Source: Amoebophrya sp. A120 (Eukaryota; Protista; Dinoflagellata). Taken from it: 6,920 nucleotides of DNA. Below, piece by piece: positions 1 to 6,920 of the stretch. The notes beneath the pieces are model-generated. The model made no database searches, was not told where the DNA came from, and saw only the letters and a list, made by a program, of their open reading frames with translations. Location of the stretch: the NCBI GenBank assembly GCA_905178155.1, contig CAJINV010000104.1:1-6920 (forward strand), written 5' to 3'. Every line of letters starts with the position of its first letter. Position 1 is the stretch's first letter. The position numbers and the translations under genes are program-made.

Positions 1-62
1 AACATTTTCAGCATGCAGATTTGCATTACAACTATGGGGTGAGGACGTTTTTAAATAGGATA
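1..62. mobile_element. Family A introner / non-canonical intron, right end only
   Basis: caactatggggtgaggacgtttttaaataggata matches the right ends of the copies ending at 1349 and 3699, and ends in ATA. Confidence 0.85.
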
Positions 63-87
63 CGGAATATCGACGGCGGCTACTGGA
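63..87 (+). CDS. Micro-exon RNIDGGYW(I), including the presumed target repeat cggaa
   Basis: Lies between two elements and joins 346 in frame to give the calpain-like DGGYWINWTD. Confidence 0.75.
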
Positions 88-3000
88 TATGAAGTGCAAA
101 TATGTCTGGGTCTCCTTGAAGTAGAGTTTGGGCTTGTCATGCACATTTTGCATGACCCGTCAGGTTTGTGATTCTGGTGCTAGCGTCACAGATTCTTTCA
201 GAACGTCTTGATGCTAATTACGCATGACAAATGCCCTCTCCGCGACGTGCCAAGAGCTGACTCCTCTTGCTGCTCATACAGCACAGATATTTTTAGACTC
301 CGCAGACAGCATTACAAGTCTCACACATTTGCAGTTGATACTGGATCAACTGGACGGACGTGGTGGACCTGGCCACCCACTTCTCCTTTTACGAGTCCGC
401 GGACAAATTCACCTGTGTGGAGCACTATGGATTGCAAGAGTGATCGTACTTGTACTAAAGATTGCAGTCATGCATTACAAATGTTCGCATTAAGGGAAAT
501 CCGCATTACAAATTCGATTTATCATGCAGAAGAAATTGAAATTTGTCATGCGCTAGCGATTTCTACTAGTTTAAGTTATTTTACTAGTACGAGTCTCTTG
601 CAATGCATAAGCACGACTCGGTCCCGGTGGAAGACGCGGAGAGTTCGAAAGTCATGCTGTATCAAAAGGAAAAGACCCCCCTTCCCATATCAGAACGAAA
701 TTTCTGATGCTGGATTTGCGTACATAAATCAGCCTCGTCTTGCAGTAGAAGAGGACTGCAGGCCCATATCGAGCCTGACTGGAGAGGTTTTGTGACATAG
801 GCGCCCAGCATGACAAAAGTCCATGCTGTAGGCCTAACAGCATCACAAACCGCTGGCACAATGCGGGGGGCCTTCTCGGATTGCCTTCTTGCAAGACAGA
901 AACGATTTGTGAGTACAAATCAGCATCACAAAAGATATCTTTTCAGTAAGGGGAGGTGGGATTATTTTTCCTCGCGATATGCTGCCCACAAAGCCCATGC
1001 TCCTCACCGTCCGCGTCCGGCCGAGCAAAGGTGGACCAGGACAAACAGCGAGTGCAACAACTTCGCCCACTATCATTTGTAAAAACGTCCCCACCCCAGA
1101 GTCAAGATGGGGATTTTGCAACACATTTCTCGAGGTTTTGGGAGCCACGCATGACAAGTTGCAGGCTGTAGTGTATTGCAGTTTAGTAAGGGAAGCCGCA
1201 TAACAAATCCATCTCCTCATCCTGTTTACAGCATTACAAGTTCCAAAATACAATGGGAAATGCCTCTTGTGAGGATGCGCATTACAAATGCTCTTGTGCT
1301 TGCAGATCTGCATGATAACTCTGGGGTGGGGATGCCTTTACACAGGAGACCCACCGATACTTCCTCATCCTCGGAAAAAATCACCGACTCCACGCTGCTG
1401 CTCTGGTCTGCCACGCAGCCCGACGGCACGCCTGAGGAGGGGGAAGAAGGACTACCCGACGAAGGAGCTAGTCCGGCGGACCCCGCGGAAACGGCGGCGC
1501 CAACCAAGGCGTCGTCGAAATCGTCGGGAAAAAAAGAAAAAGACGCAGCCGCGGGGTCTGGTACAACAACTTCCCAACAGGAACAACAGGGCGGGTCGAC
1601 AAGTAGCACGGCCATTCCGACCTGCCAAGTCGTGCTCGCGGTGGAGCCGATGGACCCATCAGTACATGCGGGGAGCTACTTTTTCCGCGCGAACAACTGG
1701 AAGTTCAACAGCTACCCGAACACTACGAGCACAGGGTCCTCGGGTGGAAAAATATCAAACCCGTTCACGACCGGTTTCCAGAAGCTCGCAAATCACCTTT
1801 GTTACGCGAAGAAGGCCGCGGCTGGGAGTGCTGGTGCAGCAGAGAGCGATCCGGACGCGCCGGACCCGTTCTGCTACTTCGACTACAACCCGCTGGCGCT
1901 GTCTGCCACCTGCACACACGTGACGGGTCCGAACGCGCCAAGGGTGCAGGGGTGTTTCGACGTGCCGGTGGTCGCAAACGGGTCGGAGCTATGCTTCGCA
2001 AATATGTCTGGGTCTGCAAGAATGCAGGTTTCGTTTGTCATGCTTGTCTGGCATGACTCTTAGATCTGTGATGCATGAGCAGGACAAGGCCCTCTTGCCT
2101 GTCATGCAAAAACGCAGTTTGCCATGCAGTAAACGAAACACATAAAAAACCGCTCAAAAAATTGTCATGCTTGGCGGCATATCGCAGTGCGCCCACCATT
2201 CACAGATTTGCATCACAACTTTCCGGACCCAGAACGACTTGCATTTGATATGAGCACTGCTTCTTGCTGATCGAGGATCCGACAAAATCGGGAGCGAAAC
2301 ACCAGGTGTTGCTGAAAAAGTGCAGCGTGCCTAGTTCTGTATCAGGAGCCGAAACTACGACGCTGATGAACTACGAAGCCAGGGCGACATTCGTCGAGCC
2401 CGCGGACTACCTGGAGCAACGAGCACACATCCCGGTTCTGAAGATCGGAAGAGCACCGGACTGCGAAGACCCCCCGGTCACCTACCCAGCCGGGTACAGC
2501 CTGTGGGCGAAGTGCGAATTTAAATCCCGCCTCCCCGACACGTATCCTGTGCAAAAGTATCGTACTCGTATAAATGCAGGTCGTTCATGACAGATCTGCT
2601 TTTTTAGCTTGTTCTGCATGACAAATTTCATTTTTCCTCTAGAAAAAATTTGTCATGCGTTTTGTACTAGTGCGATGCTTTTGTGATGCATAACACGGCG
2701 AAACGCACCGTGACCGCCTACACGCACTTCGCCGGCGACCCGGAGTGCCGCCAGCACCTCCGGCTGCGGCTGTTGGTGCGGCGAAGAGCAGTTTCCGGAG
2801 AGCAACTTGTTTTCCCGGTTTGGTCAGAAATCGTGTTTGAAACGCCGTTCCTGCCCTTGTTTCAGTTCGACTTACCGGAGGGGGAGGACACGTTTTTGCT
2901 TTTGTTGGAGGGAAACATGTCGAAACCCGTTATCGAACCGGTGTACTACGTGCACTTGTTTGAGCAACTCACCGAACCAACACCCGCGATCGCGCTGGAA

Positions 3001-6000
3001 CCCTTCAGCGAGAGTTACGACGCGAAAAAAATCGGGTTTTCCAACAGAAAGTTGTACGAAGTGGCTTTGTCGGACCTGAAAACCTTCGATCCGTTGATTC
3101 TCCGGGAACGAATCACGGTGGCAGCCGAGCCGGTTTCGGAAGAGGAGCCAGCGGTGGTCTCCGCGTCCATGCGGGTAACCTGCAACTTTCCCGACGTTTT
3201 TTTTATCGCGAAATTGGTGTTGCAGCACCCGCCAAAGGAGGAGTTTCGGCCGGCGATGAAGGACAGATGGCAGTCGGGGGAGGAAGTTACGGAGGAAGAG
3301 GAATTGCCGGCGCTGGAATCGAATGTTAACGTAGATCCGGAGGAATTCGGCGGGAGGAAAAATTGGCTGTCCAGTCTGGAAACCATGTGCACGATGGAGG
3401 GCAAGGACGCGGTTTCTTTTATCCTGATTGAAAACGTCCCCACACCAGAGTCAAGACGGGAAATCTGCTAGACAAATCACACAGCTTTGGTTGTTTGGCA
3501 TGATAAGTTTGTCCTCGTAGTGTGGTCCTGTTTAGCTCGCTCAGAATCATCACAGATCTAGCATAGCATGCCGATCCTCGCATCACAAATCCCAAAACAC
3601 GCAAAACGAAATGCTTCTCATAGGGCTCCGCATGAGAAACTTTTTTGGCATGCAGAATTGCACGACAACTCTGGGGTGGGAACGTTTTTACTCAGGATAT
3701 CCTTCCCGCACCTGGAGCTCCAGGGCAACGCGACCTACATCCTGCAGATCGAACTAGACAGCAGCCGGTGCGTGGAGAGAACGGAGGTGCCGGTGAACAA
3801 TGCGGAAATAGTCGCCTCTGAGGCGAATGGAGAGGAGCCAGCGGAAGAGGAGGAAGGAGCAGCTGAGAAGCCAGAGCCGTACAAATGGCGGTTAGAAATA
3901 TTCGCCGACGGAGATCTGCAGGTCGGAAACGACACCACTGAGTTTGACTTGGAAGCGATTGTCATGAAGAAATGGGCGAAACTGGCGGGCGTCCCCGCGG
4001 CGGAAAGGGAAGAAAAGGCGGAGGTAGCGAGGAAAGAATGGCTCGAAGGAGGGGATCAAGGGTATATTATGAAAACCGTATAACGTTTCTTGTAGGTGTG
4101 GCTCCTGAATTATCATCGGTTGTAACAGACGGCAAGCATCTTCCTGTATCGTGATGGTGCTTTTTGCAAAGTCTAAATCAAGATCAACTTTTTGAGTTGG
4201 CCGGGTCCACCTGAAGCTCATGCTCAATGTGTGAAACAAAAAGATGTGAAAATAGAGTAGGCGTGAGCCTGCGGGCCTAAATTCCGGTGGGTTGGTCGGT
4301 TGGTTGGTTGGTTTTGGACAGACGACATTTGAGCGAATTTCCGATGTATGGAAACACGGCTTCGGGGTTCGGGCGCAGGATGGGCCTGCAGCTGCAGGCA
4401 GTTGTCCGTAACTTCCTCCGGTGGGTTGGTCGGTTATGTACAACGCAGAACCAAGTTAATCTCCGCTGCGCGCAGCACAAATCTGTGCTGCGCACAAATC
4501 TGTGCTGCGTGTTGCGCGCAAATCTGTGTTGCGCGCAGCTCGCCGGAGACACAAATCTGTGCTGCGTGGACGCAAATCTGTGTTGCGCGCAGCGCAAATC
4601 AGTGTTGCGCGCAGCTCGCCGCAGACACAAATCTGTGCTGCGTCGACGCAATCGGAGCTCCGGGGGGCCTCGTGAGGATTTGCGCGAGATAGAAAGAGGT
4701 CGGGGCTCCAGTGCTGCACTTTTCTCCAGCCAAGACCTGCGCTTCCTCAACCCAAGCAAAACACACTTGGGAAATAGAGACAAACTCGCGCAAAATTTGG
4801 ATCAGCCCCCGCTTGGTCATGCCGGGCGGGCGGGGGCTTTTTGCGCAACCCCTTGGCTGCGCGAGCCCCTTGCTTGCAAACCCCTCGATAATAAATTGGG
4901 CCCCTGAGCATGCAGCTGCTCTCCCGCCCGGCTTCTCTTGAAGGCAGCCAAAGAATGAAAGTTCCACTTCTTGCCTGCCTTCAACATGTTTTCCCGAATC
5001 GGTTGTATGATTTCGGGGCTCCAGGCAGAAATCCGGGCCGCTGGCTAACAAATATTGGGTCGGGCGATTAATCTGCGCTGAATGATCAAGAAACCCAAAC
5101 AAAGCCCACACACCTGCAAAGCCTAATCAGGAAGCCAGCCTCGCGCCGGTTGGGGCTTTTTAGAAGGGTCAAAAATATCTATCGCCCCACCCGCCCACCA
5201 GGCTGGTGGGTGGGTAGGTCGGTAGGCGTGGCCAAGGGGCAGCGCACGCTCGTGCCACCCACCCACCAGCGAGGTGGGTGGGTAGGTCGGTGGGCGTGGC
5301 CAATAGGCAGCGCGCGCTCCCTCGCCGCACCCACCCACCAGGCTGGTGGGTGGGTAGGTCGGTAAGCGTGGCCAAGAGGCAGCGCGCGCTCCCTCGCCCC
5401 ACCCGCCCACCAGGCTGGTGGGTGGAAAGGTCGGTAGGCGTGGCCAATAGGCGGCGCGCGCTCGTCTCAGACCCCCACCTGCCTGGTGGGTGGGCCGGTC
5501 GCTCGGCAGGCGTGGCCAATAGGCAGCGGAGGCTTGCTCCACCCACCCACCAGGCAGGTGGGCGGGTAGGTCGGTAGGCGTGGCCAAGAGGCAACGCACG
5601 CTCACCCCACCCACCCACCAGCGAGGTGGGTGGGTAGGTCGGTAGGCGTGGTCAATAGGCAGCGCACGCTCGCCCCACCCGCCCACTAGGCCCGTGGGTG
5701 GGTAGGTCGGTAGGCGTGGCCAAGGGACAGCGCACGCTCGCCCCGCCCACCCACCAGCGAGGTGGGTGGGTAGGTCGGTGGGCGTGGCCAATAGGCAGCG
5801 CACGCTCGCCGCACCCACCCACCAGGCTGGTGGGTGGGTAGGTCGGTGGGCGTGGCCAATAGGCAGCGCGCGCTCCCTCGCCCCACCCATCCACCAGGCT
5901 GGTGGGCCGGTAGGTCGGTAGGCGTGGCCAATAAGCAGCGCGCGCTCCCTCGCCCCACCTACCCACCAGGTGGGTGGGTAGGTCGGTAGGCGTGACCAGT

Positions 6001-6717
6001 AGGCAGCCGGCTCTGGGTGGAAAGGCACGCATAGGTAGGTAGGTGGGCCGGTGCGATCATGGTATTGCAATGAATCGAAAAGACGCCTGGTAGGTGGGTA
6101 GGTAGGCAGCTGCGGCAGTAATAGTGGATGAATCTCAGAAAAACACAAAACACAATGTAGCGGGTTCGGTGGGTCAAATGTCGTCTGTCCAAAACCAACC
6201 AACCAACCGACCAACCCACCGGAATTTAGGCCCGCAGGCCCACGCCTATTGTGAAAATATGACAAACAGGGAATACGAAGCCGTGTTTATGTGCAACATC
6301 GACACGGCCGAATCTACGGAAGCAGAAGATCCGCCAAAAACCAACGCGCAGAAAATCGAGGAAAAATACACACACTCCCTATCCAAGGATGGGCACATGA
6401 ACCCGCACATGTTGATATCAAATGTAAAAATGTCTGGGTCTGGAAGGTTGGAGCTTGTGATGCTAATTCTGGATGATGCAAAAATCTGTGTTGCATGAAT
6501 GCCAAAAGTTGCCCACTAAGTTGAGAGGAAGTTTCTCATGCAGGATAGGCATGATAGCGATAGGGATCCCGCAGAATCTGTCATGCTAGGTCCTGCACTC
6601 CAGATGACATGGATCATGGAAAATCTGCATGACAAGTGTCAGAATCTTCCAGACCCAGATATTTTTACAATCCATAGCTGAAATTTCTCTACGACACGCT
6701 AGAGAAAGAGCCCCTGA
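63..6717 (+). CDS. Partial multi-exon gene (open at both ends): calpain-domain / androglobin-like protein. Exons 63-87, 346-425, 615-659, 985-1070, 1355-1989, 2256-2542, 2698-3419, 3705-4061, 6270-6415, 6682-6717 (2419 nt, ~806 aa). Non-canonical junctions can slide within the 5-bp repeats.
   Basis: The joined exons give one stop-free frame. The start RNIDGGYWINWTDVVDLATHFSFY resembles the DGxFW(M/I)xWxD motif at the end of the calpain catalytic domain. Later segments (VTCNFPDVFFIAKL, EGKDAVSFPHL, YILQIEL, WRLEIF..QVGNDTTEFDLEAIVMKKW..REEKAEVARKEWL) resemble the androglobin C-terminal region from memory. Gene structure is better supported than the product name. Confidence 0.8.
88..340. mobile_element. 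Family B introner / non-canonical intron (253 bp)
   Basis: TATGAAGTGCAAAT...ATTTGCAGTTGATA; direct repeat ctgga at 83-87 and 341-345; shares aaatatgtctgggtct with the 1990 copy. Confidence 0.85.
346..425 (+). CDS. Exon (I)NWTDVVDLATHFSFYESADKFTCVEH
   Basis: In frame with both neighbours after element plus one repeat is removed; this frame is not in the ORF track. Confidence 0.8.
426..609. mobile_element. Family C introner / non-canonical intron (184 bp)
   Basis: TIR tatggattgcaagag / ctcttgcaatgcata (14/15); direct repeat agcac at 421-425 and 610-614. Confidence 0.9.
615..659 (+). CDS. Exon DSVPVEDAESSKVML
   Basis: 45 nt, phase 0 on both sides, GC-rich relative to the flanking elements. 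Confidence 0.8.
660..979. mobile_element. Family D introner / non-canonical intron (320 bp)
   Basis: tatcaaaaggaaaa...ttttcctcgcgata with C-rich and G-rich subterminal complements; direct repeat tgctg at 655-659 and 980-984. Confidence 0.85.
985..1070 (+). CDS. Exon PTKPMLLTVRVRPSKGGPGQTASATTSP(T)
   Basis: Frame of ORF 979..1203, fixed independently by the upstream and downstream repeat-guided junctions. Confidence 0.8.
1071..1349. mobile_element. Family A introner / non-canonical intron (279 bp)
   Basis: TIR tgtaaaaacgtccccaccccagagt / actctggggtggggatgcctttaca; ends TAT...AGA; direct repeat cccac at 1066-1070 and 1350-1354. Confidence 0.9.
1355..1989 (+). CDS. Exon DTSSSSEKITDSTLLLWS...FDVPVVANGSE
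   Basis: Core of ORF 1176..2063; GC3-rich, with a low-complexity acidic/Ser-Thr loop. Confidence 0.9.
1990..2250. mobile_element. Family B introner / non-canonical intron (261 bp)
   Basis: tatgcttcgcaaatatgtctgggtc...gacccagaacgacttgcatttgata; direct repeat ggagc (1985-1989) / tgagc (2251-2255). Confidence 0.85.
2256..2542 (+). CDS. Exon (H)CFLLIEDPTK...CEFKSRLPDT
   Basis: Frame of ORF 2264..2590; in frame with both neighbours. Confidence 0.9.
2543..2692. mobile_element. Family C introner / non-canonical intron (150 bp)
   Basis: caaaagtatcgtactcgtataaa / tttgtactagtgcgatgcttttg inverted repeat; TAT...ATA ends; direct repeat acacg at 2538-2542 and 2693-2697; shares atttgtcatgc and tactagt with 426-609. 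Confidence 0.9.
2698..3419 (+). CDS. Exon AKRTVTAYTHF...EGKDAVS(F)
   Basis: Core of ORF 2683..3471. Confidence 0.9.
3420..3699. mobile_element. Family A introner / non-canonical intron (280 bp)
   Basis: TIR tatcctgattgaaaacgtccccacaccagagt / actctggggtgggaacgtttttactcaggata; direct repeat tcttt (3415-3419) / tcctt (3700-3704). Confidence 0.9.
3705..4061 (+). CDS. Exon PHLELQGNATYILQ...KEWLEGGDQ(G)
   Basis: Core of ORF 3568..4083; carries the androglobin-like WRL..DT..W..R motif. Confidence 0.9.
4466..4652. repeat. Irregular tandem array of (c)aaatctgtgYtgcg units
   Basis: Seven core copies at about 4479, 4496, 4520, 4553, 4574, 4596 and 4629. Confidence 0.9.
5183..6008. repeat. GC-rich minisatellite, 12 units of 68 or 72 bp, with a hairpin in the unit
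   Basis: The ggtcgg anchor recurs at 5217, 5285, 5357, 5429, 5501 (variant gctcgg), 5569, 5637, 5705, 5773, 5841, 5913 and 5981; best units contain cccacccaccag-g-ctggtgggtggg. Confidence 0.95.
6270..6415 (+). CDS. Exon EYEAVFMCNIDTAES...DGHMNPHML
   Basis: Frame of ORF 6124..6498, preceded by cag. A second frame is also open but is less protein-like. Confidence 0.75.
6416..6676. mobile_element. Family B introner / non-canonical intron (261 bp)
   Basis: TIR tgtaaaaatgtctgggtctggaag / cttccagacccagatatttttaca (23/24); TAT...ATA ends; direct repeat gttga (6411-6415) / gctga (6677-6681). Confidence 0.9.
6682..6717 (+). CDS. Micro-exon (K)FLYDTLEKEPL
   Basis: 36 nt between two elements; stop-free in the continued frame. 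Confidence 0.7.
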
Positions 6718-6920
6718 TATCCTGAGTAAAAACGTACCCACACCATAGTCAAGATGGGAAATCGGCTAGACAAATCCACAAGTTTTGGCTGTTTTGCATG
6801 ACAAATTTGGATTCGTAGTGTAGTGCTGTTTGAGCTAGCTTAGCAGCATCACAGATCTAGCACACCATGCTGATTGGAGCATGACAAATTGCAAAACACG
6901 ACTAGAAAATGCTTCTCATG
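6718..6920. mobile_element. Family A introner / non-canonical intron, left part (truncated by the window)
   Basis: Starts tatcctgagtaaaaacgtaccc and aligns colinearly with 3420-3620. Confidence 0.9.

Follow-up and report, generated by a model that had tools for sequence, protein, structure and literature searches.

Non-GT-AG introners in a protein-coding gene of Amoebophrya sp. A120 and the possible routes of their removal

The interrupted gene

The window analysed here is a stretch of 6,920 nucleotides from the dinoflagellate Amoebophrya sp. A120 (contig CAJINV010000104.1, positions 1 to 6,920). It carries a protein-coding gene on the plus strand, interrupted by eight complete inserts (E1 to E8) and by one canonical GT-AG intron, with a partial insert at either margin (E0 and E9). 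Eight sequencing runs (X1-X4, X6 and X9-X11) were compared with it. X1 and X2 belong to one sample and are DNA-like; X3 and X4/X6 are two samples of one study, carry no record as RNA and were guessed to be RNA, so that we call their contigs RNA-like.

The window opens with the 3' part of a family B introner ending in ATA (E0, 1-62). The downstream copy of its repeat is expected at 63-67, the first letters of an in-frame exon at 63-87, and the junction there is predicted. E1 (88-340, family A, flanked by CTGGA/CTGGA, removed length 258 nt) precedes the exon at 346-425. RNA-like contigs match from position 339, as predicted, and the E0 and E1 joints are not among the joints listed for these contigs. 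At E1, the match between the repeat copies is 8 bases long (80-87 and 338-346, TACTGGAT); a junction slide of more than 5 nt is possible there. The following inserts are E2 (426-609, perfect 5-bp repeat, removed length 189 nt), E3 (660-979, perfect repeat, 325 nt), E4 (1071-1349, family B, 284 nt), E5 (1990-2250, family A, 266 nt), E6 (2543-2692, perfect repeat, 155 nt) and E7 (3420-3699, family B, 285 nt). Between them lie exons at 615-659, supported by the flanking joints and by 44 letters between contig pieces in X3, and at 985-1070, 1355-1989, 2256-2542 and 2698-3419. After E7 come the exon at 3705-4061, the GT-AG intron (4062-6269, 2208 nt), the exon at 6270-6415, E8 (6416-6676, family A, 266 nt) and the exon at 6682-6717. 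E9 (6718-6920) is a family B introner of which the window holds the 5' part; RNA-like contigs exit the window at 6718 with the in-frame continuation found in the A120 protein P0017. RNA-like contigs cover the exons at 346-425 and from 985 to 6717, with additional support from homologs at 2256-2542 and 2698-3419, from protein matches at 3705-4061 and from P0017 at the last two exons. The sequence-only reading of this stretch had listed the eight complete inserts with correct coordinates and had noted two partial ones, but had overlooked the canonical intron. Introns of both types thus occur in the one gene.

The GT-AG intron contains a nested element of 1991 bp (4258-6248, no strand assigned) with inverted TA-ended termini, the 75-nt inverted ends being 99% alike. 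This element carries a 68-bp tandem array at 5182-6007 (11.9 copies) together with short arrays of 17-24 bp, is unlike the introners and gave no Pfam match in the six frames tested. The canonical donor (4062-4075) also fits the introner start motif N+TAT-N7-AAA, probably by coincidence. That the GT-AG intron is a decayed introner is unsupported, as its flanks match at 3/5 positions and its 3' end is without the mirror motif.

A homolog search with the exon stretch 3706-4059 as query returned 16 proteins. P0003, annotated as Amoebophrya sp. A120, is 100% identical to the spliced window protein across the E7 junction. P0017 (A120, 569 aa) matches spliced residues 460-806 with 100% identity, spanning E7, the GT-AG intron and E8; thus, part of the gene is already annotated with such introns. 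More distantly, P0005 aligns with 34.5% identity over 513 columns and crosses four junctions (E6, E7, GT-AG and E8), and the P0019 alignment spans E5. For E1-E4, homology consists of a weak GGYW match (E 0.024 and 1.2). The P0017 model begins at spliced residue 460, homologs align from residue 254, and RNA-like contigs carry up to ~1900 extra letters upstream of 339. The model looks 5'-truncated, and the full protein may reach ~1600 aa.

Androglobins combine a calpain-like N-terminal domain with a permuted globin domain that holds an IQ motif, and the host gene may be androglobin-like. One homolog, P0012 (1584 aa), has a Peptidase_C2 (calpain-family) match at 232-319 (E 1e-5), in a region upstream of its aligned part and of the window. 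Searches gave no globin or androglobin match in Pfam and no match in the PDB, five exons gave sub-threshold Pfam matches only, and neither word-based homolog searches with two exons nor a protein atlas search returned a match. Two further proteins bear on the insertion sites. P0018 is uninterrupted across the E8 and E9 sites (6416-6920). P0001, 88-94% identical, runs into the GT-AG intron at the same position, and its start residues are unrelated at a point where the window lacks an insert (~3735). At the protein level, the two suggest that a close relative has empty sites as well as inserts of its own.

Insert ends and related copies

The complete inserts measure ~150-320 nt and are without coding capacity. 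In all eight, the 30 nt at one end are complementary to those at the other at 15-26 positions, and the inserts display the terminal inverted repeats and fixed-length duplication by which MITEs are defined. The flanking 5-bp direct repeat had been claimed for every insert; it is perfect in five of the eight, and those starting at 1990, 3420 and 6416 match at 4/5 positions. Likewise, TAT...ATA ends fit most inserts, but E4 terminates in AGA. The start motif TAT-N7-AAA is exact at 13 of the 18 available ends; four more have two of the three A, and one starts with TCT. The earlier claim that no sliding position yields canonical boundaries was upheld: at any of six slides per repeat, none of the eight inserts offers GT-AG or GC-AG, and the ends are not of U2 type. 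A relaxed detector run on the window recovered 8/8 inserts with zero extra calls, and a strict one that requires an exact repeat recovered 4/8 together with a spurious pair (936-2448).

The inserts fall in part into related families (A and B), and E8 is a relative of E1 in the opposite orientation (score 72.5, with a shuffle maximum of 33). All families share the 9-mer GCAT[GTC]ACAA; in the window, 24/24 of its copies lie inside elements, which occupy 2253 of the 6920 nt. In X1/X2 the summed contig depth, which is not a copy number, runs from thousands to >100,000 on inserts versus ~20-50 on long exons; this, together with the related families inside the window, indicates that the inserts are repeated in the genome.

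A 24-letter end pattern led to 119 metagenome loci (L001-L119), of which the 80 listed all have the prefix JACKZZ01; the window exons found no match in the 119 loci. By end motifs, inverted repeat and internal motif, with the direct repeat left unused, 230 elements were called. Of these, 174 are flanked by a perfect 5-bp repeat and 36 by one matching at 4/5, whereas perfect repeats at other lengths from 2 to 9 occur in 0-27 of the 230. The position of the mismatch is not significantly uneven (9, 4, 4, 3, 5; p=0.35). Of 25 repeat mismatches (L005-L108), 15 affect the third base of a codon, which silent change in the exonic copy would lead one to expect. The relaxed detector, with a repeat of at least 4/5 required, yielded 224 contexts. 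Removal of the element plus 5 nt leaves an open coding frame in 147 of them, compared with 33 and 38 when one or two further bases are taken and 145 with three.

Strands were called with a codon model seeded on the window, which called 7/9 window junctions and ranked the plus strand first in 9/9; calls were strand-concordant in 32 of the 33 loci with several calls. Family B has 85 copies, 56 of them strand-called, with 32 in the same and 24 in the opposite orientation (p=0.35). In three loci, both orientations are found on a single called strand. Reading frames in these loci thus suggest that family B is orientation-neutral, with mirror-image ends. Among the 146 sense-oriented copies, one end mirrors the other; 132 lack GT-AG, GC-AG or AT-AC at any slide, and GT/GC-AG can be reached by a slide in nine. 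AG at repeat positions 3-4 was seen 18 times against 11.3 expected (p=0.043 uncorrected, with 16 tests per repeat copy), a preference that is lost on correction for multiple tests.

The 9-mer occurs 346 times in elements of these loci and four times in flanks, with strands at 190:156, a count that is partly circular as the detector required a looser form of it. In sense, it lies near the 3' end in 69 of the 146 copies and at the mirror position in 62, and we infer that it reflects transposase binding more probably than a branch site. Insertion phase is uneven among the 146 strand-called copies (69:39:38, p=0.0017), with a calling bias possible. Two loci, L058 with 13 detected elements and L075 with 12, are denser than the window.

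Removal of the inserts

When all eight complete inserts and the GT-AG intron are removed, 806 codons with no stop remain, at a GC3 of 0.70. The earlier claim that excising each element with one repeat copy restores the frame therefore holds with an amendment, since the GT-AG intron has to go too; otherwise a stop is met at 4083. With the first seven elements taken out, each together with one repeat, the frame runs for 753 codons and its only stop is the terminal one, the other frames having 19 and 12 stops. A gene that ends at 4083, followed by another one starting at 6259, is ruled out by the GT-AG joint 4060>6269. The frame test alone is ambiguous, as removal of the element plus 2, 5 or 8 nt is open in every case; the removed length of element plus 5 nt is taken from the joints in RNA-like contigs, not from the frame.

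Seven of the eight complete inserts are skipped exactly in the contigs of X3, X4 and X6. The X4/X6 joints are 420>610 (E2), 653>979 (E3), 1065>1350 (E4), 1985>2252 (E5), 2537>2693 (E6), 3417>3703 (E7) and 6412>6679 (E8), and each removes the element plus 5 nt. X3 agrees at six sites, by two listed joints and by contig pieces at four, the pieces abutting at E4 and E5. The GT-AG intron is likewise absent (joint 4060>6269 in X4 and X6, a loose end in X3), which argues that these contigs are spliced RNA. X1/X2 contigs, in contrast, run from exon into insert unbroken, and the listed exact joints have depth 0 in these runs. The raw RNA runs are uninformative on splicing: X9 and X10 have 0 reads on the gene, and the 97 reads of X11 fall on the E9 repeat only, with unlike flanks. 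Thus, the proposal that the inserts behave as non-GT-AG introns is borne out at seven of the eight complete sites, both by its predicted junctions and by comparison with DNA-like contigs, and we are close to certain that A120 introners are removed from RNA.

Other explanations of the skipping have to be weighed against this. Reverse transcriptase could slip at hairpins between direct repeats and skip the inserts artefactually, and such anatomy is known to yield false introns (PMC8240250). However, the gene with its inserts unremoved would be untranslatable, since five of the eight removed lengths are not divisible by three, and the spliced product aligns with homologs across E5-E8. Besides, the X4 summed depth, a poor measure, is 3.6 in the interior of E3 and 2.2 in that of E7 versus 25-48 on exons, and retention of the upstream repeat base at three of three mismatched repeats is probably a less likely outcome of slippage. 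We consider this artefact very improbable. Excision from DNA at some life stage, like that of ciliate internal eliminated sequences, would make X3, X4 and X6 DNA; the transposon-like ends are compatible with it, and the RNA label of these runs was guessed. Yet the same contigs are exactly without the GT-AG intron, with almost zero depth across it, and the X1/X2 contigs keep the inserts, even if contigs of this kind drop rare variants. Such excision seems to us extremely unlikely. A pseudogene that accumulates MITEs is hardly credible and largely refuted by the open 806 codons with their GC3, by the P0005 alignment and by the skipped forms in likely-RNA runs, although the host gene family is unconfirmed and the window resembles a short contig that would duplicate a portion of some locus contained in a large scaffold.

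Known introners and candidate machinery

The removed inserts are the already published introner system of Amoebophrya A120, in the genome in which it was described, and the non-GT-AG phenomenon has been in print for this organism since 2021; it is not a discovery of the present work. The sequence-only reading had pointed to Amoebophrya introners, and rightly so, given the identical A120 protein P0003 and ends that fit the A120 motif. More than 60% of introns are described as non-canonical, with inverted repeats and direct repeats of 3-5 nt, and the inverted-repeat motif is given in section 11 as TAT, seven variable bases and then at least three A (PMC7789003). The window inserts are like these introners in end motif, in the inverted repeat of 8-20 nt and in sitting in genes with both intron types; they lie near the published mean of 240 nt, and the Fig. 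S19 legend mentions a 5 bp repeat (PMC7789003). That source reports that neither family-specific inverted-repeat motifs nor a transposase were found in A120; as far as its description goes, there is otherwise no difference in kind from the window inserts. The sections consulted do not report a strict 5-bp repeat, retention of the upstream copy, orientation or the shared 9-mer, and in a word search its main text held neither the term lariat nor an analysis of element orientation; some of these added constraints may already be in its supplement figures S19-S25. A120 introners were later revisited, with diverse introners of the TIR type (PMC12130899). In the open-access literature searched, no paper that resolves their excision mechanism was found.

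Introners of Aureococcus, Micromonas, Symbiodinium and Polarella share the probable origin from DNA transposons but, unlike most A120-type copies, carry or recruit GT/GC/GA and AG sites (bioRxiv 2020.10.14.339549; PMC12130899). In Polarella, some introner classes with canonical sites act as introns in both orientations (bioRxiv 2020.10.14.339549). The nonconventional introns of euglenids resemble the present case in being non-GT-AG, with paired ends and cuts at fixed offsets, but their code is N3CDG...CH'GN5-6|R instead of TAT...ATA, in an unrelated lineage (PMC12501133). By inspection, the CDG/CH'G motif with its 3-nt and 5-6-nt spacers is absent at the insert ends, which are TAT/ATA. Fritillaria has also escaped from GT-AG genome-wide, although its introns are described as spliceosomal, with changed U2AF and snRNA modification (bioRxiv 2025.08.15.670264); they retain a boundary pattern, AG-A(N), that is absent in A120-type inserts (PMC7789003).

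At the locus, the cut is bounded by the mismatched repeats of E5 (GGAGC/TGAGC), E7 (TCTTT/TCCTT) and E8 (GTTGA/GCTGA), with mismatches at positions 1, 3 and 2, in all of which the upstream base is retained. Pairing of the first with the last 30 nt is predicted in 8/8 inserts (15-27 expected pairs), and folding gives z <= -3.7 in 6/8. Terminal TAT-ATA pairs are predicted in 4/8 only, which, together with the skipping of E4 despite its AGA end, counts against a reading based on the end stem. From sequence, end-guided removal fits the symmetry of the ends. In the route that we envisage, the inserts would have arisen as non-autonomous DNA transposons with 5-bp target duplications, and the end stem in the pre-mRNA would juxtapose the two repeat copies. 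If one geometry fits all elements, the 5' cut would lie 0-2 nt upstream of TAT and the 3' cut 3-5 nt downstream of ATA. The catalyst would be a U2/U5/U6 spliceosome without recognisable U1, in which the stem replaces the GT-AG signals. We think that this full reading, in which a relaxed spliceosome removes the inserts from RNA with the end stem as its guide, has about an even chance of being right.

It is favoured for several reasons. Nearly all spliceosomal proteins are present in A120 while its U1 snRNA went undetected (PMC7789003), and a strain with canonical introns possesses U1 (PMC12005148). Moreover, both intron types occur together, and the nine top non-canonical boundary types of A120 in Table S4 all begin with NT (PMC7789003), a pattern compatible with cutting one base upstream of TAT, with aligner bias possible. 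Finally, tunicates offer a precedent of mostly non-GT-AG introns with a modified spliceosome (bioRxiv 2025.08.15.670264). The mirror-image ends, the 32:24 orientation, the 132/146 copies without boundary signal, the weak AG enrichment and the 9-mer at both positions count against it. The first three are features that a putative non-spliceosomal endonuclease and ligase would explain; guided by structure, it would cut at set distances from the end stem, in the manner suggested for the nonconventional introns of euglenids. Such a system fits the symmetry of the ends better than the spliceosome does, the opposite orientations of E1 and E8 included, and the Euglena code likewise consists of paired motifs at fixed spacers, with machinery that is described as unknown (PMC12501133). 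However, the NT-start bias and the correlation with U1 point to the spliceosome, and the sequence code is unlike that of Euglena. We regard cutting and ligation as a serious candidate with somewhat less than an even chance, and favour the relaxed spliceosome over it. In a more specific form, held tentatively, a spliceosome-independent and orientation-blind system would read only the paired TAT...ATA ends and make a staggered cut, which would be close to the stem at the 5' end and 3-5 nt beyond the stem at the 3' end.

What is added to the published picture is a set of constraints: retention of the upstream copy, a strict 5-bp repeat, both orientations and a shared 9-mer. The locus also provides substrates for testing the relaxed spliceosome and its rivals, namely three mismatched repeats that bound the cut, the AGA-ended yet skipped E4 and relatives in opposite orientation, with the GT-AG intron of the same transcript as an internal control. 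Genome-wide, mismatched repeats could reveal the true cut position that is otherwise hidden by the repeats. If the orientation-blind system were true, any insertion of these transposons would be harmless, and mRNA splicing guided by structure, like that of Euglena, would have arisen a second time, independently, in A120.
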